This document shows positions 13,032-57,275 of a stretch of 59,179 nt of DNA, piece by piece. The stretch comes from Holosporaceae bacterium (GTDB taxonomy: Bacteria; Pseudomonadota; Alphaproteobacteria; UBA3830). The notes under the pieces were generated by a model. That model searched no databases. It was not told the origin of the DNA and worked only from the letters and a program-made list of their open reading frames with translations. The DNA lies in the NCBI GenBank assembly GCA_031282425.1, contig JAITDT010000024.1:1-59179 (forward strand). Reading direction: 5' to 3'. A program made the translations under genes and the position numbers. Position 1 is the first letter of the stretch; each line of letters opens with the position of its first letter.

Positions 13032-13235
13032 TTACACCACACTCCATTAAAGGATAAGAACCCTTCCAGCAAAAGTCAACGAAATTCAGTGGATAGATTG
13101 CCCGACAAACAATTCTAAACCGAATTTTTAGGTGATAGTGGTTGATTTTTCCCCATTAGCATTAGACTATGGATAATCAGCTGTATTTTAGATGGGATTT
13201 TGCGAAATTTTTAACCGTACGATGTTGGACCTGAG

Positions 13236-14468: not shown

Positions 14469-14470
14469 AA

Positions 14471-14503
14471 AAGCCGAAATACAAGACTAGTCGGCTTCTT
14501 TTT
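14471..14503 (+). terminator. rho-independent terminator candidate
   Basis: AAGCCGA (14471-14477) pairs with TCGGCTT (14491-14497) and is followed by CTTTTT, directly after the GT8 stop. The 13-nt loop is rather large. Confidence 0.55.
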
Positions 14504-14756
14504 CAGTCAAACAGGCGTTTCCACATTCAATTCATCGCAAAAGTTTCAGAGAATATCCTTATTGAGTCTAACTGTAGTATCCAGTGGAATCTCTATAACT
14601 CATAGACAAGTAAGGCACTAGTTTGACTAGTGAGAGGTTAAAGGCTTGGCGTAGAGAGGTTCAGTTATAGTGAAAACTCCTTTCGGGCTTGTCGGTCTGA
14701 AAAGGGTTTTACGCATGAATAATGTTACAACAATCGCTTAGTCATTCGAAATTGGA

Positions 14757-15129
14757 TTGCAAGACATAGTTTTTGTACCGAAATACAGAAAGAAGAAGTT
14801 GCACAAGGCAATTCTGAAGTTTTTAGGACCTGTGTTTCACGAGCTTGCTTCGCAAAGAGGAGCAACCGTTAGGGAACATGGTTCACATGTCCGCTAATAT
14901 CAATTCCTCCGAAATATTCTGTTGCTGAAGTGATAGGATCAAAGGGAAAAGCGCCATAGCTGTTGTCCGGCAATTTGGAAACAAAAAGAAAGATTTTAAT
15001 GGATAGCCGCTGTAGACTAGAGGTTACGCTGTTTCTACAATAGGATTTGAAGAGCAAATAATCCGGAAATACATTGAAAATCAAGAACGTTTAGACGGAC
15101 TTGGTTCAAATGAAATTGGTGAACTTTAG
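14757..15129 (+). pseudogene. IS200/IS605-family tnpA (Y1 transposase) relic with frameshifts and stops
   Basis: Reads LQDIVFVPKYRKKKLHKAILKFLGPVFHELASQRG, then after frameshifts HVHM..., GKSAIAV.RQFG, TRGYAVSTIGFEEQIIRKYIENQE. This is the IS200 TnpA pattern broken by several stops. Hairpins CACTAGT/ACTAGTG and CAGTCT/AGACTG flank it. Confidence 0.8.
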
Positions 15130-15253
15130 GTTGTGAATATTGACAGTCTTTGAGACTGCTCACATCCTCCAGGCTCTAGCCGGGACGCTATGACTAAAAA
15201 ACCACACAGTTGTATTAAAATGAGGAATGTTTGCAAAGATATGAAAAGAATTC

Positions 15254-15282
15254 TTGAAGAGGTAACTATTAGTTAATATAAT
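15254..15282 (+). promoter_or_regulatory. sigma70-type promoter candidate for pal
   Basis: TTGAAG (15254-15259), an exact 17-nt spacer, then TATAAT (15277-15282), about 40 nt upstream of the pal start. Confidence 0.6.
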
Positions 15283-15321
15283 CATGCTATAGTTGTTCAT
15301 GGTAGGTTAGGAGAGTGTGAA

Positions 15322-15795
15322 GTGAATAAAATTAGGAATTCTATTTTAGTGGCGGGGTTGGCTTTTTTGGTCGGCTGCGAATGCGAGAAAGCCAAAGAGA
15401 AGGATATTGAAATTGTAGATGATGGCGCTCTACGGGGGACGGCTGCGGATTTTATCGCTAATGCTGGCGATCGCGTTTTTTATGCGTTTGATAAATCGAA
15501 TCTATCACCGGAAGCAGAGGCTACGTTGCAGCGGCAAGTGGAGTGGCTGAAGCAACATGAGGCTCGAAAGTTGCTTATTGAGGGACATTGTGATGAGCGA
15601 GGGACGCGGGAATATAACCTGGGGTTAGGTGAACGTCGCGCAGATGCTGCCGCTCGATTCTTGGTGGACCATGGTATAAGTGGAGATCGCATACGCACAG
15701 TTTCCTATGGCAAAGATCGTCCAATCGCTGCTCAAGGTTCTCCGGAGGAGATTCATAGGATGAATCGTGTGTCGATTGCCGTCATCGAAGAGTAG
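15322..15795 (+). CDS. pal: peptidoglycan-associated lipoprotein Pal (OmpA family)
   Basis: Lipobox LVGC. FAFDKSNLSPEA...LIEGHCDERGTREYNLGLGERRA...VSYGKDRP is the Pal/OmpA-C signature. GTG start preceded by AGGAGAG. Confidence 0.9.
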   Translation: MNKIRNSILVAGLAFLVGCECEKAKEKDIEIVDDGALRGTAADFIANAGDRVFYAFDKSNLSPEAEATLQRQVEWLKQHEARKLLIEGHCDERGTREYNLGLGERRADAAARFLVDHGISGDRIRTVSYGKDRPIAAQGSPEEIHRMNRVSIAVIEE

Positions 15796-16017
15796 ATTTG
15801 CTTTCATGCCTTTTTCTTCTCTGCTAGATGGAGGCATGATTCGTGGGAAAGAGTTACAGCAAGCCGTATTGTCATGTGGTTTTATGAAGGGTGTTGTGTG
15901 TCTGCAGGTAGTTATGTGTTAAGAAGGGTTTTTCGAGGTGTTTTATTTTTCATTTGTCTGTGACGAACCCATCGCTTTGTGAATTGCTTCAGCGTGATAG
16001 GAGTTATAAGACGAGGG

Positions 16018-16182
16018 ATGAATGTTAAAGAACGAAAAGGCGCCCGCACGACATTGGATTTGCAATATCGTTTTGTATGGAAACAAAGTATTCCTATAAA
16101 GGTACTGTGCGGAGATGTTGCTCTGCGGTTGAGAGATCAGATAAGGGAACTGCCTTTAATCGTTGTTTCACAAAACTCTTAA
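16018..16182 (+). pseudogene. IS200/IS605-family tnpA N-terminal fragment
   Basis: LDLQYRFVWKQSIPIKVLCGDVALRLRDQIREL resembles the L-x-YH-x-VW-x-x-KYR-x-x-VL N-terminus of IS200 TnpA. It is truncated after about 54 codons. Confidence 0.5.
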
Positions 16183-16371
16183 GCGTCTCAATACCATATT
16201 AAATTAAAAATAATTTAATCTATAAAATATTATATCTCCAATACTATGAAAAAATTTATACCATTTTTCCTAAACACTGTTGCTTGGAGACAACAGAGGA
16301 GGAATACACAAATACCTATAGAATTTTGATTAATTTTTTTATAGAATTTTAAATTAGTTTTTGGCATTCTA

Positions 16372-18006
16372 ATGGAGAATTGCTTGATACATAATGGATT
16401 AATCATGTCATTGTTTTTAGCTGGATGTATTTCACAAGAGGAGGCAAGAACTCCGCAGCAAAAAAATCTCAATTCCAAAGCTTTCGACGTCATGTCGTCT
16501 CCTCTGGAAGATTTTATTTCAGATTTGGATATAGACGAGTTTCTGGAAGATGAAATAGATAAAGAATCGCAGATAAATGAAAACTTTTATAAACCAATTT
16601 CAATTTCCGTCGCCGAAAATATGAAAATGCGGGAAGTTTTAACGCAAATGGCAGATTTGGCCGGAGTAAATATTTTTATCGTTCAGGAAGTGGAAGGAAG
16701 TATCTCTTTTTCGGCAAAAAATCGTCCATTTTTAGATATTTTGAAGGATATCTGCGCAGGCGCGGGTTTGAAGTATTCTATTAACGGAAACTCCGTAAAA
16801 ATCGAAATAGATACGCCCATGCTGAGAGTTTACAACGTACAATTCTTGAATATACAGAGAGACTCTGTAAGCGCCGTATCCGTTTCGACGGATATTTTTT
16901 CCAATCAATCTCTAGGAATTAAAGGAGACGTATCGACATCGTCTGGGCAGGCGAATGGGTCTAGCAGCACGGTTTCCGGAGTGACGAAAAATAATTTTTG
17001 GACCGAGTTGGAAGCTTCTTTGAAGACTATCATAGGCGAAGAAACCGATGGATCCTATCTTTCAATTCATCGTCAGGGAGGACTTGTGACAATTTACACG
17101 ACGCAAACCAAACACAACGAAGTGCAGAAATATTTGCGTCTACTGAAAGACACTACGGAATCGCAGGTACTAATCGAAGCAAAAATTCTGGAAGTTAATC
17201 TGAAGGACGAATACCGAAGCGGCGTTAATTGGAATATCGTTCGCAGCGGCGGCGCTAGGCTGGAGAAGAAATTTTCCAATGCCGAGGGTTTATTTTCTTT
17301 TGGAGTAGACAGAGCCAACTTAAGCGCTGTCGCCGGATTAATTGAAAGATTTGGCGCTGTGAAAACCCTATCCAGTCCTAGAATTACGGTTCTGAATAAT
17401 CAATCGGCTATATTGAAAGTTGCCCAAAACGAAGTTATCTACGTTCCTGAATTGCAGCGGCAATATGCGACAGTTTCGGATAATCGAAGTACGGATTTTC
17501 TTTCCACGACAATTCATACAATTCCAATTGGGCTAATAATATCGGTTTTACCGTCGGTGGATAAAAAAAACAATACGATTTTGCTCAATTTACGTCCGAC
17601 AATTTCTCGGATTGCCAGTTACAAGGAGGTCCCTTTTTTCTACCAAACCACGACTGCGAACGGTACTGCAACCAATGCGTTAGGCCAAAGCGCTCAATAT
17701 CACAGAATACCAATTGTCGATGTCCGAGAACTGGATTCCGTATTAAAACTAAATTCTGGACAGATAGTGGTTATGGGAGGACTAATGCAGGAATCATCCC
17801 TAAACAGTCGAGACGGATTGCCGGGTTTCAGCGCTGTCGACTTTTTGGCGGGAAGTAATGATAAATCGACGCATATCACGGAGCTGGTAATATTTTTAAA
17901 AGCTACAATTTTACGAAAAAAAAGTACAGCACATCATGCAGCGGACAAAAGAATGTATGATGCCTTCGCCAATGACCCAAGACCATTGAAGTTCAAAAAA
18001 TTATGA
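16372..18006 (+). CDS. secretin (type II secretion/type IV pilus family, MshL/PilQ-like), lipobox-containing
   Basis: ESQVLIEAKILEVNL, LSSPRITVLNNQSAILKV and IPIVDVRELDSVLKLNSGQIVVMGGL are secretin C-domain motifs. The N-terminus carries LAGC. Confidence 0.85.
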   Translation: MENCLIHNGLIMSLFLAGCISQEEARTPQQKNLNSKAFDVMSSPLEDFISDLDIDEFLEDEIDKESQINENFYKPISISVAENMKMREVLTQMADLAGVNIFIVQEVEGSISFSAKNRPFLDILKDICAGAGLKYSINGNSVKIEIDTPMLRVYNVQFLNIQRDSVSAVSVSTDIFSNQSLGIKGDVSTSSGQANGSSSTVSGVTKNNFWTELEASLKTIIGEETDGSYLSIHRQGGLVTIYTTQTKHNEVQKYLRLLKDTTESQVLIEAKILEVNLKDEYRSGVNWNIVRSGGARLEKKFSNAEGLFSFGVDRANLSAVAGLIERFGAVKTLSSPRITVLNNQSAILKVAQNEVIYVPELQRQYATVSDNRSTDFLSTTIHTIPIGLIISVLPSVDKKNNTILLNLRPTISRIASYKEVPFFYQTTTANGTATNALGQSAQYHRIPIVDVRELDSVLKLNSGQIVVMGGLMQESSLNSRDGLPGFSAVDFLAGSNDKSTHITELVIFLKATILRKKSTAHHAADKRMYDAFANDPRPLKFKKL

Positions 18007-18638
18007 AATTCTCCAATACAGACAAGGGATTTTCTCTGATAGAAGTGGCCATCGCTGTTGTGGTCATTAGCATAATCGCCAGCTTCGCACTGAAGGGAAG
18101 GGAACTGATCAATTCTACTAAACTGAAATCCGTCGCTCATCAGGTAAACGCTTTTAAGGTAGCGATTCAAGGTTTTGTTGATAAGTATGGAGCACTGCCG
18201 GGAGATTTTAGCGTAGCTCGAGAAATGATCAATAACTCTTTGCAAAATGGTTCTGGCAATGGCGTTATTGCGTCTGAGGAGGATGCAAAACGATTTTGGC
18301 AACATTTAGTGGCGGCGGACTCTTTAAATTTAGAACTTGTTAATGGATATCCACTAAGTAAAGTCGGCGGACATTATACAGTTTCTTCCAATATTCCAGA
18401 CCGATCTGGAACATGGATCATACTATGTAGCGGAGCGACCAACAATGAAAATTTTACGGGAATTTTAACGCCGGAGGAAGCTTATTTAATCGATAAAGAC
18501 AATGATAATGGCAATCCGTTAACGGGCGAAATTCAAGCTATAAAATCTTCAACGGCGAAGGAGGAATGTTTTATTGATTCCAGATATAATTTTAAAAATA
18601 AGAATAAAGATTGCGTACTTTTATTCAAAATTTGGTGA
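18003..18638 (+). CDS. prepilin-type N-terminal cleavage/methylation domain protein (pilin or pseudopilin)
   Basis: MKFSNTDKG|FSLIEVAIAVVVISIIA gives G-F-x-L-I-E with Glu at +5, followed by a hydrophobic helix. Confidence 0.85.
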   Translation: MKFSNTDKGFSLIEVAIAVVVISIIASFALKGRELINSTKLKSVAHQVNAFKVAIQGFVDKYGALPGDFSVAREMINNSLQNGSGNGVIASEEDAKRFWQHLVAADSLNLELVNGYPLSKVGGHYTVSSNIPDRSGTWIILCSGATNNENFTGILTPEEAYLIDKDNDNGNPLTGEIQAIKSSTAKEECFIDSRYNFKNKNKDCVLLFKIW

Positions 18639-19275
18639 GCGTGGATCGATTCTATTGGAAGTCGCCATCGCCATAGCTGTTTTGGGAGTAATCAGCGGGT
18701 TTTTTCTCACAAAAACAACCGTTCTCAATAAATCTATGCGACAACAAATCACTAAAAACAACATTGCTACCGTTTCTTTGGCGCTAGCGTCTTTTGTAGC
18801 AAATAACAACAGGCTACCACGCCCCTCATTGAATAACGACGGCATTGAATGTCAGGAATCCGAATCTTCTCTGGCAAATGCCATTGGACGAGTTCCGTTT
18901 TACACCATAGGAGTCACGGCGAAAACAGCGCTGGACGGCAGTGGAAAGCCATTGATTTACATAGTAGAGCCCACTCTTACCGGGAATTTCCCAAGTATCT
19001 ATGGTAATAGCATGAGCAGCTGTTTTTGCGATGGAAATTCCGCTTGCAATATTCTCATTGATAAAGTGGCACCATTAAAGTGGAATCCTATTGCGTTTGT
19101 TCTCGATACGGCAATGCCAACGATATCTGACGCGATTCATGTTACCATTTCTGCAGATACCCATTTGGTTTCGCGGGATATGCTCTTAATGTTATATTTA
19201 AAAAGCCAACCGTGTAGGGGAGGGGCAAACACTCCCCCAGAAATAAAACCTTCCGATCCACTCGATAGTATTTGA
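18574..19275 (+). CDS. second prepilin-like protein (divergent)
   Basis: ...FGERG|SILLEVAIAIAVLGVISGFF has Gly then Glu at +5 and a hydrophobic helix. The long leader and the 65-nt overlap with the upstream gene make the start uncertain. Confidence 0.55.
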   Translation: MIPDIILKIRIKIAYFYSKFGERGSILLEVAIAIAVLGVISGFFLTKTTVLNKSMRQQITKNNIATVSLALASFVANNNRLPRPSLNNDGIECQESESSLANAIGRVPFYTIGVTAKTALDGSGKPLIYIVEPTLTGNFPSIYGNSMSSCFCDGNSACNILIDKVAPLKWNPIAFVLDTAMPTISDAIHVTISADTHLVSRDMLLMLYLKSQPCRGGANTPPEIKPSDPLDSI

Positions 19276-19311
19276 AAAAAGTTTTAAGAGCTTTATTAAA
19301 CCACGACGCAA

Positions 19312-20457
19312 TTACAACTCCTGCCAAAATTCCTTAACTTTTGCAAAAAAACCTTCGGATTTTGGACTACTTTTGCTGCCCTTATCGAACTCCCGTAGTA
19401 ATTCTTTCTGACGATCCGTTAAATTTACCGGCGTTTCCACTATCGCATGCACCATCATATCACCCCGCATGGAGCTGCGAATGACGGACATTCCCTTGCC
19501 GCGCAGCTTCAACACTTGACCCGATTGAGTACCGGCAGGAATTTTAATAGCGGCTTTTTTCCCATCGATAGTAGGAACATCGACCTCTCCGCCCAGCGCT
19601 GCCACTACAAATGATATGGGAACATCACAGTGAATGGAACTGCCTTCACGTATAAATAGCTTGTGCGGCTTGACGGACACAAAAATATATAGATCCCCGG
19701 ATTTGCCGCCACGAATTCCAGCTTCGCCTTCACCAGCGAGTCGGATTTTAGCGCCATCTTCAATGCCGGCGGGAATAGATACGCTTATGTTTCTAGGTTT
19801 GCTAACCCTTCCGGCTCCATTGCATGTTTTGCATGAATTTTCGATAATATGCCCGGTGCCATTGCAGGCTGTACAGGTTTTTTCCACCATAAAAAAACCT
19901 TGGGAAAACCTCATCTTTCCGGTACCTCGGCAGGACGGACAGGTTCGTGGAATTGCTCCCCCCTCTGAGCCAGTGCCATTGCAGGCCTCACATTTCACGT
20001 TTGTTCGCAGTTTTAATTCGATTTCTTTACCGCGAAACGCTTCCTCCAATCCAATGGACGTGTCATAGCGCAGATCATTTCCACGCATTTCCGCTCGTCC
20101 ACTGCTTGCGCCATCGTTCATTCCTCCAAAAATTCCTTCAAATATATCAGAAAATGACGATCCGCCTCCGAAATCAAAATGAAATTCTTGCGATGAGAAT
20201 CCGCCCTGATTGTAATTACCGCCACCACCGGCGGCGGCATTCTTATAGGCTTCATGACCAAAACGATCGTAGGCAGCCTTCTTCTGCAAATCCTTTAAAG
20301 TTTCGTAGGCTTCATTAACATATTTGAACTTCGATTCGGCTTCCTTATCTCCTTTATTTCTGTCGGGATGATATTTCATCGCCATTTTTCTATAGGCTTT
20401 CTTTATTTCATCATCGCTGGCGGATTTAGAGATGCCCAACGCTTCGTAATAATCCAT
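19312..20457 (-). CDS. dnaJ: chaperone DnaJ
   Basis: J-domain with KYHPDRN, a Gly-rich region, and four CxxCxGxG zinc-finger repeats. Confidence 0.97.
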
Positions 20458-46434: not shown

Positions 46435-48495
46435 ATGGTAGAAAGCACGCAGCATGTATTAGATAGAGTCCGTTCTCCTCGAGTACAAATCACCTATGAC
46501 GTGGAGATAGGGAATGCTATAGTTATGAAGGAGTTACCCTTTGTTATAGGAGCGCTAATCGATTTATCAGGCATGCCGGTGGATCCGTTGCCTCCCATTA
46601 AACTTAGAAAATTTGTGGAAGTGGATAGGGACAATCTTCCGGACTTCATGATATCAATCAATCCACGCTTAGCTATACAGGTAAAAGACACGCTGGAAGA
46701 TGGATCAGAGGATCTGAATGCAGAGTTGTTTTTCAAGCATATGGATGACTTCGGTCCCATTAGTATTGCTCGGCAGGTGCCCAAATTAAATAAAATATAT
46801 TCTTCACGCATAAAATTAAACGATTTGGTGGTAAAGCTGGAAGGGAATGATCCTCTTCAGCAGTGCGTAAAAGATATCGTTGCAGATGCCGGATTAAAAG
46901 CCGCTTTAAAAGCCCAAATTGACGCTGTTTTAAAGGCTAACAAACAGTCAATTACGGCGGACTTCGCCACTGCCCAAACGCCGAATGGCGTCGCCCCTCC
47001 GCCGTCAGGAGGCGGAGCTACCGCTGCCGGCGCGCCTCCTGCCGCTGACGCTCCAAAAATGAATCGAGAAATCCTGAAAGAAATGTTTGTGGGCGGTAAA
47101 CTTGCGCGAGATCCATCGGCGGAAGTATATGCGTGCAGCATACTACTGGAGCTACTTCTTAAAATTGAGGAAACGAAGGTAACTGTGATGAAAAATCCTC
47201 TTGCCTTTGTGGAAAAGGCGGTGGCAGACATCGACGCTATACTGAGCGCTCAAATTAACGAGATCCTACATAATCAGGCGTTTCAGGAACTCGAGGGTAC
47301 ATGGCGGGCGTTGCACTATTTAATAATGAATACAGAAACCAGCACTCAATTAAAAATAAGAGTGATGAACGCGACGAAAAAAGATTTGCTGGACGATCTG
47401 GAAAACGCCGTCGAGTTTGATCAAAGTCAGCTATTTAAAAAAGTATATGAAGAAGAGTACGGTACTTTTGGTGGCCATCCTTATTCCTGCCTCATTGGCG
47501 GATACGAATTTACGCGTCATCCGCAAGATATATTACTACTGGAGAAAATTTCCAATGTTGCTGCTGCTGCGCACGCTCCATTTATCGCCGCGGCTCATCC
47601 GCGCATGTTCGATATGGAAAGTTTCACGCATCTTGCCGGACCGCGTGATATATCAAAAATCTTTGAAAGTACGGAAATGATCAAGTGGAGGTCTTTCCGG
47701 GATAGCGAAGATTCCAGATACGCAGCGCTGGTGCTGCCGCGGGTACTTATGAGATTGCCCTATGGGCCGGATACATTACCCGTCGATGGTATGAGTTATG
47801 TGGAATCCATAGATGGCAATGATAATTCGCAATTTTGCTGGGGAAATGCAGCCTTTGTTTTGGCTCAACGAATTGGTTATGCGGTTTCGCTGTATAAATG
47901 GCCCGCCGCCATTCGCGGCGTTGAGGGTGGTGGACTGGTGGAGGAACTGCCGGCTTACACATTTAAAACCACCGACGGCGATATCGCGCTAAAATGTCCA
48001 ACAGAAATAGCCATTACCGATCGTCGGGAAAAAGAATTGACAGATATGGGGTTTTTGGCAATTTGCCATAGTAAAGGAACTGACTTCGCCGCCTTTTTCG
48101 GCGGGCAAACTACCCAGAAACCCAAGGTCTATAATACAGATGATGCCAATGCGAACGCTGCACTGAGCGCACGGCTACCGTACTTGCTAGCAGCGTCCAG
48201 ATTTGCTCATTACATAAAGGCGATCATGCGCGATAAAATTGGGGCTTTTCTGACGAAGGACAATGTCTCTTCCTATCTTAATAATTGGATAGCCAATTAT
48301 GTTCTATTAAACGATTCTGCCAGCCAGGATCTCAAGGCTAAATTTCCGCTACGGGAAGCTCGAATAGACGTATTCGATATTCCGGGTAAGCCGGGATCCT
48401 ATAAGGCGACTATATTTTTGAGGCCGCACTTCCAATTGGAAGAGCTGACGGCGTCCATAAGATTGGTGGCCAGTTTGCCGCCACCGGCCAAGTAA
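46435..48495 (+). CDS. tssBC: type VI secretion contractile sheath, TssB (VipA) and TssC (VipB) fused in one polypeptide
   Basis: aa 1-~170 carry TssB blocks: RVQITYDVE, ELPFVIGALIDLSG, RKFVEVDRDNLPDF, ELFFKHMDDFGPISIARQVPKL. Then a P/A/G linker GVAPPPSGGGATAAGAPPAADAP. Then TssC blocks: ILHNQAFQELEGTWRALHYL, YGTFGGHPYSCLIGGYEF, AAAAHAPFIAAAHP, LVLPRVLMRLPYG, LRPHFQLEELTASIRLV. Confidence 0.85.
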   Translation: MVESTQHVLDRVRSPRVQITYDVEIGNAIVMKELPFVIGALIDLSGMPVDPLPPIKLRKFVEVDRDNLPDFMISINPRLAIQVKDTLEDGSEDLNAELFFKHMDDFGPISIARQVPKLNKIYSSRIKLNDLVVKLEGNDPLQQCVKDIVADAGLKAALKAQIDAVLKANKQSITADFATAQTPNGVAPPPSGGGATAAGAPPAADAPKMNREILKEMFVGGKLARDPSAEVYACSILLELLLKIEETKVTVMKNPLAFVEKAVADIDAILSAQINEILHNQAFQELEGTWRALHYLIMNTETSTQLKIRVMNATKKDLLDDLENAVEFDQSQLFKKVYEEEYGTFGGHPYSCLIGGYEFTRHPQDILLLEKISNVAAAAHAPFIAAAHPRMFDMESFTHLAGPRDISKIFESTEMIKWRSFRDSEDSRYAALVLPRVLMRLPYGPDTLPVDGMSYVESIDGNDNSQFCWGNAAFVLAQRIGYAVSLYKWPAAIRGVEGGGLVEELPAYTFKTTDGDIALKCPTEIAITDRREKELTDMGFLAICHSKGTDFAAFFGGQTTQKPKVYNTDDANANAALSARLPYLLAASRFAHYIKAIMRDKIGAFLTKDNVSSYLNNWIANYVLLNDSASQDLKAKFPLREARIDVFDIPGKPGSYKATIFLRPHFQLEELTASIRLVASLPPPAK

Positions 48496-48547: not shown

Positions 48548-49138
48548 ATGAGCAGCAATAATAGAGGATTTGAAATGTTTAGCCAAATTCAAAGGCCTGA
48601 CATGCTTGGCAAAAGCGATGAAAGCCTTAATGCACCGAGTGGAGCCTCAAAAACTCCCCAATGGGTTATTGGAACGGATGATGATACCGGTATTTTTGAT
48701 AGCGATATGGACGGCGATTTTGCCAAAATGGCTGTGGTCCTCTGGATAGTATTCGGAGGCGCTCGATTAGCAACATACGACTCCTCAGGACAGCAATCCG
48801 GAGACGGAAAAATAGTCAATCGCGACGTTGTCGTATGTATGAAATTTGGAGACTACGGTCCGCCTCTTCAGCAATGGATGTTTTCTGGGAAAAAAATTAC
48901 CACTATTACCATAAAAAGGGTAATTAGCGTAAACGGCACGCTCGTGGTGATCCAGGAATTAACCTACGGAACGTGCGTCATAAAGACCTACGAGCAAAAT
49001 GGCGACATTATTACGTTTACATTTACTTTTGTCACCTATACCGACATGAGTCTAGCCTACGATCATGACGGAACGCTAGTCGGACGTGTTGGAATGTCAT
49101 ATGACGCTGCTAAAATTACGGTAGCCGCTGTATCTTAA
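48548..49138 (+). CDS. hcp: divergent Hcp (TssD)-like tube protein with N-terminal extension
   Basis: GGAGG lies 9 nt upstream. The C-terminal ~130 aa (VVVCMKFGDYGPPLQQWMFSGKKITTITIKRV...LTYGTCVIKTYEQNGD..ITFTFTFVTYTDMSLAYDHDGTLVG) follow the Hcp pattern: K-x-x-D-x-x-SP-x-L-like block, then G-x-x-(I/L) and alternating beta-strands. It sits directly downstream of the sheath gene. Confidence 0.55.
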   Translation: MSSNNRGFEMFSQIQRPDMLGKSDESLNAPSGASKTPQWVIGTDDDTGIFDSDMDGDFAKMAVVLWIVFGGARLATYDSSGQQSGDGKIVNRDVVVCMKFGDYGPPLQQWMFSGKKITTITIKRVISVNGTLVVIQELTYGTCVIKTYEQNGDIITFTFTFVTYTDMSLAYDHDGTLVGRVGMSYDAAKITVAAVS

Positions 49139-49140
49139 TT

Positions 49141-49443
49141 TTGCAGCAGCTACATATATCCACACCTATTTTCACATCGGAGCCGGCTACGAAATTAGCG
49201 AAAGTTCAGCCTATAAAACGATCAAATGGGTTGAGGACACGCTGGCGTCCGAGTTTTGCATTGCCAGGAAAGAAAGCTCCCATTCTTGAGGAGAGCTTTA
49301 TTAATGAGAGCTTTCTTCCTGCGACCTTCATGCTTGTTTGATGCCTCCAAAATCACAACCATTTCCCGGAACGTTTATGGCTTCACTCCTGTTAAACGAC
49401 GAAATTCTTCCTCTGATAAATTCTTAAGATACTCATACCTCAT
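49141..49443. mobile_element. relics of an IS5-like (HTH_Tnp_4/DDE_Tnp_4-type) transposase gene in two orientations
   Basis: Plus strand: TYFHIGAGYEISESSAYKTIKWVEDTLAS, then after a frameshift FALPGKKA. Minus strand from 49443: MRYEYLKNLSEEEFRRLTGVKP*TFREMVVILEA. These match the N-terminal HTH part of this transposase type. Confidence 0.6.
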
Positions 49444-49595
49444 CGACTCCCTCCAAAACTACACTTCTCATTAGGCTTATAACATTAACTCCGTTTCGAA
49501 AGAAGTCTATTTCAAGAATCTTCGTGTAAAAGTATTAATGATTGAAGAAAAACCGCTTCAACAAAAAATATTGCAATTTTTTTTGACTTTTTCTC

Positions 49596-49623
49596 TTGAC
49601 AATTTTTTTTTTTTTGATACATT
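49596..49623 (+). promoter_or_regulatory. sigma70-type promoter candidate whose spacer is a T13 tract
   Basis: TTGACA (49596-49601), a 16-nt spacer A-T13-GA (T13 = 49603-49615), then TACATT (49618-49623), 35 nt upstream of ATG 49659. Confidence 0.55.
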
Positions 49624-49658
49624 GAAAATAGTTTTTATCATCAAATATGGAGGTTAAT

Positions 49659-50186
49659 ATGAAAAAAACTATTGGAACCGTTAGAGCAATTGTGTTCGGC
49701 AGTATGTTGACAGCGGCGGTTAGCTGCGAGGGAATGCAGATAGAGAATGTTGCAGGCTTGATTTATGATGGAAATGAGCATGACCTAACCCCTCTTTGGA
49801 AAGATTACTTGTCGCAACATTTTGATGCTACACACCGAGCTTATCTTATGCATAATGGTAAGGATTGCTCCCTGTTGTCTCATGCGGCATGTGCTGGAAA
49901 ACCACTGCTGCTCGCAACTATGGGACATCTCGATACTCTTACGCTAGAAGATTTGGGAAATTTATTTTCTGCACTTAAACCAACGGCGTATGCTTCTCAT
50001 GATCAATATACAGCATTGGAGCAAATAGTGCAGGCTATGATTGGGACTTTTGGTATAGATCGAGTACGTCAATATCGTGATGCTCGAGGGCGCTCTTTTG
50101 ACCAAATCGTTGCGGAAGGAACGGCTGGTGATTTTAATGCGCAAAGGAGCATATTTCCTAAGTTGCGTGAGTGGGGTCTTTATTAA
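49659..50186 (+). CDS. hypothetical exported protein (possible lipoprotein; weakly ankyrin-like)
   Basis: GGAGG lies 6 nt upstream of ATG 49659. MKKTIGTVRAIVFGSMLTAAVSC is signal-like. NGKDCSLLSHAACAGKPLLLATMG loosely resembles an ankyrin repeat. Confidence 0.5.
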   Translation: MKKTIGTVRAIVFGSMLTAAVSCEGMQIENVAGLIYDGNEHDLTPLWKDYLSQHFDATHRAYLMHNGKDCSLLSHAACAGKPLLLATMGHLDTLTLEDLGNLFSALKPTAYASHDQYTALEQIVQAMIGTFGIDRVRQYRDARGRSFDQIVAEGTAGDFNAQRSIFPKLREWGLY

Positions 50187-50209
50187 CGCTTAGTGAAAGG
50201 CTTCGGCTT

Positions 50210-50413
50210 CTACAAGCAGATAATTTTGGTCCTACGGAAATATATTTCCTCAGGAGAATGGGTTGCGGCGCGTAAGGCGGAATATGGCTTTAAGATTTCC
50301 TCGCAGTGCGCCGTATTTCTTATGGATAGGAGCGCGTACTCTGAACAAGTGGGATAAAACTTGCATCGGGATTTTAAATAACAGGATAATGTTTTTTGAT
50401 AAATGCGAATCAA
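50210..50413 (-). pseudogene. yidD: yidD-like (membrane protein insertion efficiency factor), N-terminally truncated and C-terminally divergent
   Basis: IRIYQKTLS...CKFYPTCSEYAL matches the YidD core. Only a TTG start is available, the usual N-terminal residues are missing, an IS200 relic abuts it, and the usual C-terminal Cys/His/Pro motif reads ALRAATHSPEE. Confidence 0.45.
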
Positions 50414-50439
50414 TTACTACCGTCTGAGTATCTGAAGAT

Positions 50440-50640
50440 AGGCCGATTAAGGATGAATCCTTCTTTTCGTTCCATGTTTTGAAAGCAGAATCCTCATCAT
50501 TTTGATCATCAATGTATTGTTTAACTACATCCTCTGTAACTGCTCCAACCGTACTGCAAAAGTAGCCTTTAGCCCAAAGATGATATCCCCAATATTTTTA
50601 TAAGTTCGGAAAATTCTCACAGCATCGCGCTGTACGTCCT
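50440..50640 (-). pseudogene. IS200/IS605-family tnpA C-terminal relic
   Basis: Minus strand reads ...ENFPNL*KYWGYHLWAKGYFCSTVGAVTEDVVKQYIDDQ, the conserved C-terminal block of IS200 TnpA, interrupted by a stop. Confidence 0.7.
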
Positions 50641-50898
50641 TTTAAGTACTAAGCAATTTTTGCAGACGATAGGTAACTGTGAGCTTTTAGGACGCTAAAG
50701 CGTAAGGTTTATGCCCGACATATGGAAAATAAACGCACAACCATTTTATTAAAAGTCTTCGCGCTAGTACCATGTCGTAAAAAATGCCTGAAAGTAGAAA
50801 AAACATAATAAAAACAATCATATATTGACATGCCCAAAAAGAAAGCAAACAAATATAACTATATGAAAACTTGCGCTTTTTGTATTAGTCAGAAATAG

Positions 50899-51150
50899 TT
50901 ATCCACAAAGATATCCACAATTTTTGTTGATAACTCTTTCAACGATAGTTACGATTGCCATCGTAGTTAATAAAACAACGAGGCAATTGTCGTGTTTTGG
51001 CAGTACAGCCAATGATAGAAAGCATGATACAATATCGTTATGATAATACGTTCTAACATTTAGCAAAGAATCGAGTTTTAGCTTTAACGACCTAATTTTT
51101 CTTTTCAAGCAACTCCAGAAATATTCGATTGGATTTAATTCAGCAAATAG
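50899..51150 (-). pseudogene. IS630-family transposase C-terminal relic
   Basis: Minus strand reads LFAELNPIEYFWSCLKRKIRSLK..., the same NPIE-x-x-W-x-x-x-K motif as at 1-108. The upstream part of the gene is absent. Confidence 0.6.
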
Positions 51151-51273
51151 GGAGGCTGATCAGATGGCATTCGGTTTTGGCTTCCCAGAGTTCTTTTCTT
51201 TCGTGGATCTACTCTTTTTTTGCATTGTCATATTTTTAACGCTAATTTGGTTGCTAATCCTGAAGTAGGGGAT

Positions 51274-51287
51274 GGGGGGGGGGGGGG
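51274..51287. repeat. G14 homopolymer beginning at the G of an ATG (51272)
   Basis: Counted directly: GATGGGGGGGGGGGGGGACT. All three plus-strand frames stop within 20 codons. Confidence 0.95.
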
Positions 51288-51313
51288 ACTGTTAGTTGAT
51301 GTACTGTCGTCCG

Positions 51314-51730
51314 CTAATACTTGATTTTTCTGAGAATAGTCGATGAGATTTTATCATCTTTGTCTTTACTACCGCGGGATGACCCGAACTCGAAGCTGTA
51401 AGCGTCCTTGAGACAAGCTCCGAAAATCCCGGAAACTGTGGAGATGATGCCCACAACTTCGCCGGGAAGATTGCCGCTATAGGAGGTTAGCGTTAATATG
51501 CAGAAAATTAATCCCAGCGCCGCTCCAACCACCATGATATTCAACCTTCTGTTGCGACCGCAGGCGTTTATTACGGTCACCTTGTTGTCGTCATTTCCGC
51601 TATTTGCATTTTCGAGATCTGGAGTTTTTGGGTTCACTGGCGTCGCAGCGTCGATATGATTGTCGATGGAACGTTGAGTTTCGTTTTTCATTGTTTTTAC
51701 TGGATCTAAAATTATTTTTTCTATGGTCAT
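51314..51730 (-). CDS. small 2-TM membrane protein (holin-like or immunity-like by position)
   Basis: 138 aa with a hydrophilic N-terminus, two hydrophobic helices (IMVVGAALGLIFCILTL and VVGIISTVSGIFGACL) and a charged tail. Its ATG overlaps the upstream stop (ATGA). Confidence 0.6.
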   Translation of the reverse strand: MTIEKIILDPVKTMKNETQRSIDNHIDAATPVNPKTPDLENANSGNDDNKVTVINACGRNRRLNIMVVGAALGLIFCILTLTSYSGNLPGEVVGIISTVSGIFGACLKDAYSFEFGSSRGSKDKDDKISSTILRKIKY

Positions 51731-52146
51731 TTTTTTCTCCTTAATTCATAAAAATAATGTGAGCCGAAAATTCGCTTCGGCTCCAGATAAGCTGCCCAAA
51801 ATGGTCGAATGGTTCGCTCATGATAATGATCGCATCCGTCCGTTAGATCCGGCCATTTTTCCAGTAGCACATTTTGAGCTACGTCAAGACAAATTCTAAA
51901 AATAGAGTGTTCATCGGTGATATTTTTTACCTTTTCATAATTCGCATCCTCGCTGTTCCAGCAGGAAAATTGATATGGAGCAAAGCATACGTCGGCTATC
52001 GTCTTGGCGAAATTTTTATTTTTTCTGTTTACGATGACGTTGGCGATTGCTATAAGAGAAGCTATTCCAAATTTGTATAATTCTCCGCGTCCCTCCCCAT
52101 ATATGGTTTTGGCTAAGGTATTCAGATCGTTTTCCGAGAAGTTCAC
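51727..52146 (-). CDS. SleB-type cell wall hydrolase (Hydrolase_2 family), no signal peptide
   Basis: LAKTIYGEGRGE...IAIANVIVNR...YQFSCWN is the SleB/Hydrolase_2 pattern. Its GTG start overlaps the upstream stop (GTGA). Confidence 0.75.
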   Translation of the reverse strand: MNFSENDLNTLAKTIYGEGRGELYKFGIASLIAIANVIVNRKNKNFAKTIADVCFAPYQFSCWNSEDANYEKVKNITDEHSIFRICLDVAQNVLLEKWPDLTDGCDHYHERTIRPFWAAYLEPKRIFGSHYFYELRRKK

Positions 52147-53030
52147 GATTCCTCCTTTATAAAGTTAATCAAAATTAGATTGGTTTTAGGAGTGCACAGG
52201 ACGGCGTTGCTCCTATAGATGGATTCTTCACTTGTGTTTTTGTTGATTATGCTTATTCGGCAAGCGCCATTTTTCAACTCGTCGTAGAGGTTGGTTCTTT
52301 GGGATGCAGAGAAATTTTTTACGCCGACGAATTGATAACCAGATTCGCTTTTTTGATCCACAGTTGGATCGACACCCAAATTTCGCATTACGCTTAGGGG
52401 AGATATTCGTAGGTATAGCTGCTTTCCATCCGATACGGTCCGAAAAACGCATGATTCTATCAATTGCGGATGCATCCCGTATTCGCATATTCCTCCGTAG
52501 GGATAAATTATGCATTTCGCAAACGTATTTTCGTGCCTCAATAAACCTCTTTGATTTGCGACTTCAGATATTGCTTCGGAACAGACAAGAAATTCCTTTT
52601 CGAAAAGGCAATCTGTCGAAAGATTTATTCGATAATCGCCAAAATCTTTTCCGACGAACGTATTGAGCTCGTTCTCCTGTAAATATCTTCCGGTATTTTC
52701 AAAGGTTACGATAATTTTTGAGCAACAGGATTTTGGATTTTGGATCTGCGATTGCGAATCTACCGGCGGCGAATCATAGAGCGCCGCTCGACCTAAAAGT
52801 TTTGAGTCTTCGAGACGCACTATGGTTGCGCCGCTCGTTATGTGGATCGGCGTAATACCAGCGTTCAATTGAATTGAATCCGGCCAAGAATTCGCTATTG
52901 TTGCGTAGCTATCGTCGCTATGCGATTCAACGACGATACAAGCCGATATGTTTTCGTCCGTATCTGGAATATCCGCGAAATCGCGATGATAGCCGGCAGA
53001 GAGAGCTCTTATTCCTCTCGTAATTGTCAT
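52143..53030 (-). CDS. hypothetical protein (295 aa), operon member
   Basis: Long ORF translationally coupled on both sides. No motif recognised. Confidence 0.6.
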   Translation of the reverse strand: MTITRGIRALSAGYHRDFADIPDTDENISACIVVESHSDDSYATIANSWPDSIQLNAGITPIHITSGATIVRLEDSKLLGRAALYDSPPVDSQSQIQNPKSCCSKIIVTFENTGRYLQENELNTFVGKDFGDYRINLSTDCLFEKEFLVCSEAISEVANQRGLLRHENTFAKCIIYPYGGICEYGMHPQLIESCVFRTVSDGKQLYLRISPLSVMRNLGVDPTVDQKSESGYQFVGVKNFSASQRTNLYDELKNGACRISIINKNTSEESIYRSNAVLCTPKTNLILINFIKEES

Positions 53031-54769
53031 GATTGCTCCATTTCAAAATCCGGCAGAGTTATTTCGCGCGTAATTACTCTCGCCGTATTCAGGGGGTGAA
53101 GATGTAATTTGATTTTCGTCTCGTGTTTTTTTAATTCCGCTGTCAGCTCTGCGCTAGAGCTCGCAACTGTTTGCGCTAGAATGGCAATTTGCTCTTCCGG
53201 AGTATTTTCCACTTCAATTTTTTGTACGATATCCGCAGGATTAACATTGCCGGTATCGGCAGGCACGATTATCATATGGGAATTTAATTTGTCGAAGCTT
53301 TGCGATAAGTCTGCGCCGCTATGACCGATAGTAAATTTGATTATCTTTCGATCGGCGTTGCCCAAGAATCTCATTCTTACAATTTTTCCGGAGATGCGCC
53401 CGCCGCTGAAGCGATCGTCATGAAGGGTGATTTGATCATTTACGCTGGCGTTCATGAATTTCTTTGCTTCGACGCAAAAATCTATCTCGATATTGCGGGA
53501 TGAATAATTAACAAGCGCGATTGCCTTTTGCATCGCGTATTTTATGGCGTTCGCCCCGCGAGTTGTTGCAAAAAACGACGAACTCATATCGTCTTTCAGG
53601 GCGCCGGGAATTTTTTCCACAAAATTCCATTTATCTTGCTCAAAAATTTCGCCAGAAACATGCGCAAATGCGCAGGCGAAAACACTGTCGCCGTATCGAA
53701 CTTTTTCACTGCGCCCATAATAAGTAAAATGACTCCAGATTGGATATTCCTTTGGCAGCTGAAGCGCATTTAATCGCAGATAGACATTTTTCTCCCTCCC
53801 GTACAGAGACGATGGATTAACAATCCGAACTGTTACGGTCTCAACGCGCTTTTGTTTATAAATCCAGCTGAGAATTAATTTTCCGGCGAAATAAAATCGC
53901 CGAAACAGAACCTTTTTCCGATCGGAAGATTTCTGCACGTAGAAATCCGGAGATAAAAGGAGATATTCATTTCCAAATCCGCGATTGTTCGGATTTATTT
54001 CTTTGATATCGCAGTGAATTACCTCATATCCGCCTCTATTGGAAGATATTTTCTTGATTCCAGATTTTATATTTGTAAAGGAATTAATTATACGCTGCGC
54101 AAATTTTGCGGCAATCATTGGCATAACATCGATAATTCCGCGTTCATGCTGAACCCAACTGGCGGATATTTTTAGATTAACAACTCGATATGGTTCTCGC
54201 GCAACTCTCACTCTAATAGAGTCTTGTAAAATTTCGGCGCCATTTATATCGAAATTTTTTTGTCCGTGCTTTATATCAGACAGCGACAATTGTCCGTTTC
54301 GCATATCCCAGCAGAAAATTTTGCCGCATCCTTCCAGGAAAATTGTTGGGTTTTTCAAATCTCTAGAGGAAAAAAACAAATCGTCGAACAGAATGCTATC
54401 TTTTAGTGGCAAATGATTATCAACGGAATGATACCGTTCAAAATTTGCATCGGAAAATTCAGATAATTTGGTCTGAAAATCGTCCGGCTCGGCGATAAAT
54501 TCCAATTCCATTGTCGAACCGCCAAATCCTACGGGGAAGGCAACGAGTCGCCCAGAAAAGATCAACTCCACAGCGCCGTCGGTTTGCATACCTATTTTCA
54601 TATATTTCTTATTTTGTAATTTATCTGCGTCTCGAGTGCCAATTGTTACTTTGGCGATGGCGAATCCACATTCCTTTTGGAAGATTTCCAAAGAAATTAT
54701 CTCTTCGTCGCCACGCCAATTACTTTTGTCTTCATAAAATGAAGAGCTCCAATCGAATATTAATTTCAT
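53027..54769 (-). CDS. hypothetical protein (580 aa), first gene of the operon; possibly phage-tail or baseplate-like
   Basis: Long ORF with the purine-rich AGGAAAGAAGAAA before its ATG. It appears beta-rich. No catalytic motif recognised, so the function assignment is speculative. Confidence 0.6.
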   Translation of the reverse strand: MKLIFDWSSSFYEDKSNWRGDEEIISLEIFQKECGFAIAKVTIGTRDADKLQNKKYMKIGMQTDGAVELIFSGRLVAFPVGFGGSTMELEFIAEPDDFQTKLSEFSDANFERYHSVDNHLPLKDSILFDDLFFSSRDLKNPTIFLEGCGKIFCWDMRNGQLSLSDIKHGQKNFDINGAEILQDSIRVRVAREPYRVVNLKISASWVQHERGIIDVMPMIAAKFAQRIINSFTNIKSGIKKISSNRGGYEVIHCDIKEINPNNRGFGNEYLLLSPDFYVQKSSDRKKVLFRRFYFAGKLILSWIYKQKRVETVTVRIVNPSSLYGREKNVYLRLNALQLPKEYPIWSHFTYYGRSEKVRYGDSVFACAFAHVSGEIFEQDKWNFVEKIPGALKDDMSSSFFATTRGANAIKYAMQKAIALVNYSSRNIEIDFCVEAKKFMNASVNDQITLHDDRFSGGRISGKIVRMRFLGNADRKIIKFTIGHSGADLSQSFDKLNSHMIIVPADTGNVNPADIVQKIEVENTPEEQIAILAQTVASSSAELTAELKKHETKIKLHLHPLNTARVITREITLPDFEMEQS

Positions 54770-54825
54770 CTTTCTTCTTTCCTATAAACGTTGTAAACTA
54801 ATGCTTTTATGATATCGGGGAAGTT

Positions 54826-55710
54826 ATGAATTTAAGCCAAAAGGGATACTATCAGGGGCTGTTTTTTTTAATGATGACGATGACTGTTAGCTGCGCTAAC
54901 GATATCGTAGTAAAATTTATGGGAGAAAGACTAGACGCTCTAGAGGTAATCTTTTTTCGCTTTTTTTTCGGATTGCTCACTTTACTCCCATTTGCGGCTC
55001 TTGAAGGAAGGCGGGTTTTCAAGACGAAGCGACTTGGATTTAACGTGATGAGAGGAATACTTGGAGCGGTGGGTTTCTTTCTCTACACCTACTCGGTAAT
55101 CTATCTTCCGCTTGTGGAAGTCGTGACGATTCTGTGGACGATACCGCTTTTTGTGATAGTTTTATCGATTTTTTTTCTTGGTGAAAAAATTTCCGCCATC
55201 AGGTGGGCGGCCACCTTAATTGGATTTCTCGGATTATCGTTTATTACGCTGTACAACAGTGACGCGTCATTTTCGCTACGGCTTCTGTACGTCGCTCCGA
55301 TCGCGTCAGCGTTTTTATTTGCAGTGCAGGACGTCATGATAAAGAAAGTTGTAGATAACGAGAGCAAAACAACTATGTTGCTTTATTTCGCTATGGTTGC
55401 CGGCGCACTTTCGTTCTTCCCTGCACTTCTTGTATGGAAAACTCCAACGACGCGCGAATACTTCATGCTATTTTTATTGGGCGCTAGTGGAAACTTGATG
55501 CAATATTTTATCTTCAAAGCGTTTAGCGCTACAGACTTGTCTGCGTTAGCTCCGTTTCGTTACATAGAATTTTTACTGAGCGCCATTTTTGCATTTATTT
55601 TCTTCGCTGAAGTTCCCGGCGTAAATGTTCTGATGGGCGCATTGATTCTAATACCCAGCACTTTGTACCTCACTGTCAGTGAAAAGCGTCGTGATCGTTG
55701 TTTTGCTTAG
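54826..55710 (+). CDS. EamA/DMT-family transporter
   Basis: About 10 TM helices in two EamA-like halves; 294 aa. Confidence 0.85.
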   Translation: MNLSQKGYYQGLFFLMMTMTVSCANDIVVKFMGERLDALEVIFFRFFFGLLTLLPFAALEGRRVFKTKRLGFNVMRGILGAVGFFLYTYSVIYLPLVEVVTILWTIPLFVIVLSIFFLGEKISAIRWAATLIGFLGLSFITLYNSDASFSLRLLYVAPIASAFLFAVQDVMIKKVVDNESKTTMLLYFAMVAGALSFFPALLVWKTPTTREYFMLFLLGASGNLMQYFIFKAFSATDLSALAPFRYIEFLLSAIFAFIFFAEVPGVNVLMGALILIPSTLYLTVSEKRRDRCFA

Positions 55711-56212: not shown

Positions 56213-56375
56213 TTTATATATCTTTTTATTTCATCATATTTATCAGTAAACAATATAAAATATTTTATCTTTTTTTAAATACGTTTTATGTATAAAACGA
56301 TATCAAAATCTCTTCACAAAGAATTACGGATCCAGTATGGATATGCTATAATCCCCGGAAGATTAGAGTGTGGCG

Positions 56376-57275
56376 ATGACAGATTTACTAGACCCGAAGC
56401 AGGATTATATCTTCAAGAACATATTTGGCGTGAAGCAAAACAAAGTGCTTCTGATTTCATTTTTAAACGCCTTATTCAAAGGAGCTCCTCATATTGTGGA
56501 TCTGACTTTTGATAATCCAAATATAGAAAAGATTCTTGAAAAAGATAAGGCCAGTCGTCTCGATATCAAAGCTACTACGGACAATAAAACAAAAATCGAC
56601 ATTGAAATTCAGATCAAAAATACCGGAGAAATTCCACAGCGAGCATTTCATTATCTTGCAAACATGATGCCGCGAGTTGTGAAGAAGGGAAAATCCTATA
56701 AGGGACCTAACGTTATTGGCATTTGGATTCTGGGAGAGAACGTCACCAATCGTCAGAACGCCATTAGCGAGGCGTATATGACATTTCAGCCGCAGGATCC
56801 GGACCCATATCAGATACTGACCGATAGCGCAAGGATCATTTTTATTGAATTACCAAAGTTCAACCCGAAGAAGGCAGATCGCCGCGATTTACTTACAGCT
56901 TGGCTTTCATTTCTGAAGGATCCGATTTTCATGGACGAATCGTTTCTGCAGGTAGAGGAAGTTCACGAAGCGATGGAAACGCTGAAATACATCAGTGCAG
57001 ATGATGAAATTCGCGCCGTCTCCGACCTGCGGCAAAAGACCATCAACGACCGCAATAGCGAAATGACGGTCGCTAGAGAGGAGGGATTAGCAGAAGGACG
57101 AGAAGAAGGTAGAGAGGAGGGGAGAGAAGAAGGTATCGCCATCGGTGAAGAAAGAGGGAAAGCTGAAGGCAAAAGAGAGGCAGCATTGTCGATGCTGATG
57201 AATAATTTGCCCCTGGATATTATAAGTAAATGCACCGGATTATCGATTGAAAGTATAAAGAATTTGCAAAAGTAG
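56376..57275 (+). CDS. Rpn-family recombination-promoting nuclease / putative transposase (PD-(D/E)XK)
   Basis: MTDLLDPKQDYIFKNIFG N-terminus, RLDIKATT...IDIEIQI (D...E-x-K nuclease core), and a charged EGREEGREEGREEG region near the C-terminus. Confidence 0.8.
   Translation: MTDLLDPKQDYIFKNIFGVKQNKVLLISFLNALFKGAPHIVDLTFDNPNIEKILEKDKASRLDIKATTDNKTKIDIEIQIKNTGEIPQRAFHYLANMMPRVVKKGKSYKGPNVIGIWILGENVTNRQNAISEAYMTFQPQDPDPYQILTDSARIIFIELPKFNPKKADRRDLLTAWLSFLKDPIFMDESFLQVEEVHEAMETLKYISADDEIRAVSDLRQKTINDRNSEMTVAREEGLAEGREEGREEGREEGIAIGEERGKAEGKREAALSMLMNNLPLDIISKCTGLSIESIKNLQK

Follow-up and report, generated by a model that had tools for sequence, protein, structure and literature searches.

A four-gene tail-hub and lysis operon in a Holosporaceae bacterium, probably the detached half of a gene transfer agent-type cluster

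We analyzed a stretch of 59,179 nucleotides (nt) from a Holosporaceae bacterium (GenBank assembly GCA_031282425.1, contig JAITDT010000024.1, positions 1 to 59,179 of the forward strand; this whole stretch is called the window below). Four adjoining minus-strand genes in it encode a protein of 580 amino acids (aa) with the predicted fold of a tail hub, an all-beta protein of 295 aa, a cell wall hydrolase of 139 aa, and a small membrane protein of 138 aa. The four genes probably constitute the tail-tip and lysis half of a Holosporaceae cluster of the gene transfer agent (GTA) type, related to the Rhodobacter capsulatus GTA (RcGTA), which in this contig would have been detached from the head genes by a rearrangement.

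The operon and its proteins

A preliminary description of the window, made from the sequence without database searches, had presented the four genes as chained by start/stop overlaps, and the coordinates as well as the ATGA, GTGA, and ATGA junctions were all confirmed (Table 1). A GGAG-type ribosome-binding site could be read in the sequence ahead of each of the four starts. In a comparison with the closest relative, whose hub is 87% identical, the ratio of nonsynonymous to synonymous substitutions (dN/dS) was 0.108 for the hub gene, 0.167 for the gene of the 295-aa protein, 0.062 for the hydrolase gene, and 0.128 for the membrane protein gene, with dS at an unsaturated 0.4-0.7. Since the values for all four genes lie between 0.06 and 0.17, the module is, judging from the sequence comparison, under purifying selection in this lineage. 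The same values, together with the 67 homologues found for the 580-aa protein and the 27 found for the 295-aa protein, mark the four open reading frames (ORFs) as real genes rather than chance ones. All of these homologues are "hypothetical proteins" of metagenome-assembled genomes of Holosporaceae or other Alphaproteobacteria from termite guts and rumen.

No family had been recognized for the two large proteins in the preliminary description, and searches of Pfam, PHROGs, NCBIfam, and PDB sequences, run with the single proteins or with profiles, returned none either, save a weak CBM5/12 signal inside the 580-aa protein in the PDB-sequence profile search, which comes from an insert that distant family members share. 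The signatures of VgrG (Phage_GPD, Phage_base_V, T6SS_Vgr, and the NCBIfam VgrG models) were absent from the 580-aa protein at E<=0.1 in Pfam and NCBIfam. Structure prediction followed by a Foldseek search, as proposed in the preliminary description for both large proteins, bore out its guess that the larger one is hub or baseplate-like. The AlphaFold model of the 580-aa protein (predicted local distance difference test score [pLDDT], 88.5; predicted template modeling score [pTM], 0.80; alignment of 59 sequences) had PDB matches that were uniformly hub or spike proteins from the center of tailed-phage-like machines, dozens of them with a probability of 1.0. These comprised the spikes of extracellular contractile injection systems (eCIS), the PVC and Afp spikes included (7aef_q at E=7e-13, 7b5h_AJ, 9qgm, and 6j0m), VgrG1 of the type VI secretion system (T6SS) (4uhv, 6e-9), hubs of the Mu gp44 type (3cdd and 1wru), T4 gp27, siphophage Tal proteins, and the hub of pyocin R2. 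The eCIS spikes, which are about 580 aa long, aligned over the full length of the model, and the hubs consisting of the gp27 part only (Mu gp44, MuSo2, and pyocin R2) reached target-normalised TM-scores of 0.5-0.58, the value for pyocin R2 being 0.58. With high confidence, then, the 580-aa protein is predicted to have a tail-hub fold of the gp27/VgrG type.

The hub family turned out to be large. A profile search of 1.84 billion representatives gave 1561 matches at E<=1e-3, 266 of them at E<=1e-30; the best were mostly full-length proteins of 560-650 aa, and a minority were unrelated CBM5/12 repeat proteins matching the insert only. The members that carry an organism name come from Holosporales, among them Candidatus Paracaedimonas acanthamoebae (AIL13299.1), and from other Alphaproteobacteria, and all are annotated as hypothetical proteins. 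A homologue search with the broad alignment A6 returned only the same 67 close hub proteins. Among 50,697 phage records, tblastn with the hub produced only an overlap of 16% on the CBM-like insert (Atu_ph07), and a scan of IMG/VR with the hub alignment A1 produced no match. Because no Pfam, NCBIfam, or PHROG model covers it, the family represents an annotation gap.

For the 295-aa protein, the model was confident (pLDDT 86, with residues 50-295 above 90) and all-beta, and the fold search gave no significant match to it, either with the PDB or with BFVD. Although disordered, its first 45 residues include conserved ones. tblastn against the same phage records gave no match. In the synteny set, which consists of 32 loci from distinct other genomes of Holosporaceae and other Alphaproteobacteria scored by tblastn (two distant loci, L039 and L040, are additional to it), the 295-aa gene follows the hub gene in 28 genomes, directly in nearly all of them. 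We infer that its product is a peripheral component of the tail tip or one that binds the receptor. At one locus (L014, identical to L006; positions 11755-20100), an insertion of about 8 kb of unrelated genes separates the hub gene from the 295-aa gene, both of which are still intact.

The SleB/Hydrolase_2 identity of the third gene product, its lack of a signal peptide, and the two transmembrane segments of the small fourth protein, all given in the preliminary description, were confirmed. The 139-aa protein matched Hydrolase_2 in Pfam (E=1.7e-15) and endolysin families in PHROGs, phrog_938 among them (E=1.9e-18). It carries no hydrophobic signal at the N-terminus, and its sole hydrophobic stretch, residues 23-39, lies within the catalytic domain. 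An identity as a signal-arrest-release endolysin was considered and rejected, the stretch in question being part of the catalytic domain and located after the conserved YGEGRGE motif. In the 138-aa protein, hydropathy analysis placed the hydrophobic segments at residues 62-86 and 91-108, ahead of a charged tail rich in lysine and aspartate. Over its last 75 residues, the family shows hardly any variation, even in L040. The two-segment hairpin and the AYSFEFGSSRGSKDKD motif (window, 51314-51550; L040, 13311-13847) were seen to be near-identical across lineages whose hubs are 31% identical.

The match of the 138-aa protein itself to phrog_1544 was weak (E=1.2e-3). The full-length membrane protein of L040 matched the same family at E=2.6e-20 and gp71 of Vibrio phage VP882 at E=4e-12, and it had homologues in 187 phage records. 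In VP882, gp71 sits directly after the endolysin gp70; in Polaromonas phage Tiera, the homologue is located directly 3' of a gene annotated "secretion activator protein," a label often given to lysozymes of the GH108 type. Genes gp69-71 of VP882 have been described as lysis genes (10.64898/2026.07.27.740977). The pair in the window fits this cassette pattern, in which a muralytic domain without a signal adjoins a small membrane protein whose C-terminus is charged. At L039, the hydrolase and the membrane protein are jointly replaced by a phrog_6637 protein and a Phage_lysozyme protein (PF00959), which shows that what the slot needs is a muralytic activity and not the Hydrolase_2 enzyme in particular. 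From its position and its phage homologues, the 138-aa protein would be the lysis-cassette partner of the hydrolase. In the less reduced relatives, an extra small protein with a tail-fibre-like N-terminus and a CBM5/12 domain is encoded between the 295-aa gene and the hydrolase gene (L040, 12501-12881; L039, 5148-5711); the termite-gut clade of Holosporaceae, the window included, has none.

Gene order in relatives and in the window

The full collinear order of head and tail-tip genes was found in 21 of the 32 loci; four more contigs end inside the head block, and three are too short upstream. In the collinear loci, the genes for a portal, an S78 prohead protease, an HK97 capsid, a gp6-type adaptor, and proteins of 95, 126, and 170 aa lead to an EamA transporter gene on the opposite strand, after which come the hub gene, the 295-aa gene, the hydrolase gene, and the membrane protein gene. 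Four or five small genes follow the adaptor, ahead of EamA, in the relatives with long contigs. The same gene order was kept in L040, a freshwater contig of 303 kb with a hub only 31% identical. There the small genes matched Phage_connect_1 and, below the Pfam gathering cut-offs, Phage_HCP and Tail_completion_gp17, the families of RcGTA g6, g7, and g8; for the tail-completion-like protein of L040, no match was found among the PDB sequences. The best PDB matches of the capsid and the portal of a relative were the RcGTA proteins Rcc01687 (E=2.8e-71) and Rcc01684 (E=2.6e-72), respectively.

The cluster is chromosomal and flanked by housekeeping genes, and no integrase or replication genes were seen in the flanks. 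The gene order stays the same while hub identity falls from 87% to 31%, as in a vertically inherited, selected host locus, by which a GTA is recognized. We consider it likely that the cluster has been conserved and inherited vertically across Holosporaceae and allied alphaproteobacterial endosymbionts. Of the layouts proposed in the preliminary description, a phage tail plus lysis remnant, the tail and lysis identity gains support from the continuation of an RcGTA-type head cluster by the operon in the 21 genomes and the four contigs ending in the head block; the word "remnant" is too weak for genes under purifying selection.

The most conserved protein of the cluster, with a mean column identity of 71%, is the 170-aa protein (L009, 8471-8980; alignment A3), which is absent from the window and whose gene occupies the position of the tube and tape-measure genes of RcGTA. 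Profiles of the 170-aa and 126-aa proteins hit no PDB, Pfam, or PHROG family, and the 170-aa protein had no match among the phage records.

In 28 of the 32 loci and in L039 and L040, the EamA gene is the immediate upstream neighbor of the hub gene and has the opposite orientation, and it thereby splits the cluster into a head half and a tail-tip half. Loci that have lost the head block still retain it beside the hub operon. When the 100 nt upstream of the hub genes were compared in 29 loci, the sequence TACAACGTTT (54786-54795, minus strand) proved to be semi-conserved. At this position in the window and at the equivalent one in most related loci, 12-25 nt ahead of the start codon of the hub gene, there is a semi-conserved TACAAC(A/G)TTT motif, which may be a promoter or a regulatory element. 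A promoter scan of the region upstream of the hub gave nothing above chance, and a search for CtrA boxes upstream of the hub genes found none.

Beyond EamA, with one ORF between them, the window carries a transposase-like gene of the PD-(D/E)XK type. A homologue of it adjoins EamA in L017 (at about position 8255, plus strand), another lineage in which the head block is missing there, and the gene may mark the breakpoint of the rearrangement. On the other side of the operon lie a fused tssB-tssC sheath gene and, directly downstream of it, an ORF of 196 aa that had no match among PDB sequences and may encode a divergent tube protein of a T6SS; in the literature, Hcp/TssD is given as "missing" from the Holosporaceae T6SS. 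The gap between this ORF and the operon measures 2176 bp (49138 to 51314), in agreement with the 2.2 kb of the preliminary description. The insertion sequence debris that was said to lie in the spacer could not be confirmed: the window contains no repeats of 40 nt or more, and the spacer is not obviously such debris because one of its ORFs (50210-50413, minus strand) resembles by eye, with its KFYPTCSEYA motif, the gene for the membrane-insertion factor yidD.

Table 1. Features of the window around the four-gene operon
Feature	Position	Strand	Remarks
Fused tssB-tssC sheath gene	46435-48495	+	TIGR03358 plus TIGR03355
196-aa hcp-like ORF	48548-49138	+	Directly downstream of fused tssB-tssC; sub-threshold match to Pfam T6SS_HCP, E=0.039
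138-aa membrane protein gene	51314-51730	-	Two hydrophobic segments; phrog_1544 family, VP882 gp71-like
139-aa Hydrolase_2 (SleB/CwlJ-type) gene	51727-52146	-	GTG start; PF07486 match
295-aa all-beta protein gene	52143-53030	-	Confident model without fold match
580-aa tail hub gene	53027-54769	-	gp27/VgrG-type fold (predicted); CBM5/12-like insertion at about residues 345-386
Overlap span chaining the four genes	51727-53030	-	ATGA 53027-53030, GTGA 52143-52146, ATGA 51727-51730, read from the sequence
Divergent intergenic region between hub operon and EamA	54770-54825	.	56 bp
EamA/DMT transporter gene	54826-55710	+	Pfam EamA, E=1.8e-29
PD-(D/E)XK (PDDEXK_2, Rpn-type) transposase-like gene	56370-57275	+	About 0.7 kb beyond EamA, one ORF between

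Interpretation of the module

In a GTA-type particle, the 580-aa protein would form a trimeric hub of the gp27 type that closes the tail end, with its CBM5/12-like insertion exposed for contact with glycans. The 295-aa protein would dock on this hub via its conserved N-terminal arm. For lysis, the Hydrolase_2 enzyme would act as an endolysin with the two-segment protein as its membrane partner, the pair freeing the particles from the producer cell; as a secondary possibility, the hydrolase might travel with the tail like RcGTA g14 and open the peptidoglycan on entry. The rearrangement would have cut the module, together with EamA, from the head genes, and its nearness to tssBC-hcp would be an accident.

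Several observations weigh against this assignment to a GTA. On the 59-kb window, which appears to be an entire contig, tblastn detected no head genes, which leaves a working particle in this organism hypothetical. The window is in this respect the fifth case of its kind: in 4 of the 32 loci (L017, L025, L026, and L035, where the upstream sequence extends for 6 kb or more; the relatives are GenBank JAIRMS01, JAISZX01, JAIRZO01, and JAITRU01) the head block is likewise absent beside EamA. Profile searches revealed no recognizable tube, tape-measure, chaperone, or sheath gene in the cluster for the tail that the hub would cap. Searches of Pfam and of PDB sequences brought up no sequence similarity to RcGTA g12-g15, and the profiles A1-A4 hit no RcGTA chain in a PDB-sequence library that did include the RcGTA capsid and portal chains. 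Of the 50 best fold matches of the 580-aa model, none was a baseplate chain of RcGTA, and those at the top are contractile-system spikes. The membrane hairpin is conserved to an extreme degree, beyond what would be expected for a holin. Finally, George et al. (2022; PMC9254644) saw transcripts but no particles, and GTA particles have yet to be seen in Holosporaceae.

The preliminary description had offered the operon as a candidate for the missing partners of the orphan tssBC-hcp locus. Its 580-aa protein would then be a divergent VgrG spike for the neighboring fused TssBC sheath and the Hcp-like tube, which we consider highly improbable, and we give just as little credence to the parts assigned to the other three: an adaptor or baseplate piece for the 295-aa protein, a peptidoglycan remodeller or cargo effector for the hydrolase, and a partner or immunity protein for the membrane protein. 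The case for such a T6SS module, which as a whole has very little chance of being right, consists of the resemblance of the fold to VgrG and the eCIS spikes over the full length and of a proximity (2.2 kb) unique to this window, to which may be added that the T6SS of Holosporaceae has been described in the literature as non-standard, with components undetected. The comparison of gene neighborhoods, which the preliminary description had itself proposed as a check, brings it close to refutation: a tssBC or hcp-like gene lay within 10 kb of the operon in none of the 32 other genomes, and in the 21 loci the operon stands in line with GTA head genes, to which it also leads back in the four contigs that end in the head block. 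The idea of a T6SS partner is unsupported because synteny ties the operon to the GTA head genes and in none of these genomes to tssBC. It is opposed as well by the absence of the Phage_GPD, Phage_base_V, and T6SS_Vgr families from the 580-aa protein, by reports that Holosporaceae have a recognizable VgrG and most of the T6SS core at other sites in their genomes, and by the transposase-like gene that lies near the junction in this window. TssF and TssG, suggested by the sizes of the 580-aa and 295-aa proteins, were rejected: the fold is that of a gp27-type hub, and there is no synteny with T6SS genes.

That the genes are inert prophage debris, a decaying fragment of tail and lysis genes without a present function, is equally far-fetched. 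The contig lacks head genes, transposase-like genes lie nearby, and family annotations are absent, all of which would fit decay; but the four ORFs are intact and translationally coupled, their dN/dS values were obtained at unsaturated dS, and the order and the reading frames are kept in 28 of the 32 genomes, down to 31% hub identity. A different division of labor among intact genes is rather unlikely, though less so than either of these: the hydrolase would be borne by the virion like RcGTA g14, the membrane protein would be ejected and insert into the membrane, and all four genes would be structural, with lysis encoded elsewhere. The hydrolase gene does come after the hub gene, where RcGTA has the tail peptidase g14; the hairpin is far more conserved than that of typical holins; and translational coupling joins all four genes, the structural ones included. 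Opposed to this are the phage homologues of the membrane protein, which are found in lysis cassettes and not in tail modules, and the swap at L039, where the pair gives way to a membrane-protein-like gene with a classical phage lysozyme.

More tentatively than the GTA assignment itself, and as a possibility we would give more room than the foregoing ones while still doubting it, the Holosporaceae GTA may have a minimal stub tail without a tape measure, made up of the 170-aa protein, the VgrG-like hub with its insert of a type that binds chitin or peptidoglycan, and the 295-aa protein with its unseen fold, and the tip module may have a promoter of its own. Since the module survives under selection after its detachment, it may, on that reading, be a semi-autonomous device, possibly repurposed for interaction with the host and not for DNA transfer between bacteria.

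For the preferred interpretation as a detached half of a GTA-type cluster, what is new is the joining of an RcGTA-type head cluster to a previously unrecognized tail tip that is not of the RcGTA kind. George et al. (2022; PMC9254644) described GTA head clusters in Holosporaceae, with tail components missing or too divergent, and noted that undetected tail genes might be present among the unknown genes that follow the adaptor. They asked whether the tails of endosymbiont GTAs have truly been lost, the heads perhaps serving as storage shells or otherwise, or whether the genes are too divergent to detect. The hub, the wall hydrolase, and the lysis-type membrane protein directly 3' of the head block in more than 20 genomes argue for tails too divergent to detect. 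The operon supplies named candidates for these tails, and it removes a false lead, in that the Holosporaceae T6SS is not to be completed with these genes.

Comparison with known systems

The operon of the relatives resembles the "small cluster" GTAs of Holosporaceae and Rickettsiales, as well as RcGTA, in directly continuing a block of portal, S78 protease, HK97 capsid, adaptor, head-completion, and tail-completion genes. It differs from RcGTA in lacking detectable homology to g9-g15 (tube, chaperones, tape measure, distal tail, hub, peptidase, and megatron); the Pfam families of the RcGTA tail (DUF2460, DUF2163, NlpC/P60, GTA_TIM/Phage-tail_3, and others) were found neither in the four proteins nor in the products of the relatives' 126-aa and 170-aa genes. 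Here, unlike in RcGTA, the hub is a single gp27-type protein of 580 aa, and the cluster is interrupted by a transporter gene in the opposite orientation. The window, in turn, is without the head half.

With the hubs of the gp27/VgrG type (T4 gp27, Mu gp44, pyocin R2, the Afp8/Pvc8 type of eCIS, VgrG, and Tal), the 580-aa protein shares the predicted fold, at a Foldseek probability of 1.0. In contrast to them, it belongs to no sequence family and carries the CBM5/12-like insert, and the neighbors of its gene include no sheath, baseplate-wedge, or PAAR genes. The lysis half departs from the cassette of VP882 in that the window has no separate holin-like gene upstream and in that its membrane protein has lost the N-terminal transmembrane segment and the helical region of the L040 member. 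It agrees with gp69-gp71 in the succession of a cytoplasmic muralytic enzyme and a small membrane protein of the gp71 family (phrog_1544), the L040 member of which aligns to gp71 over 87% of its length.

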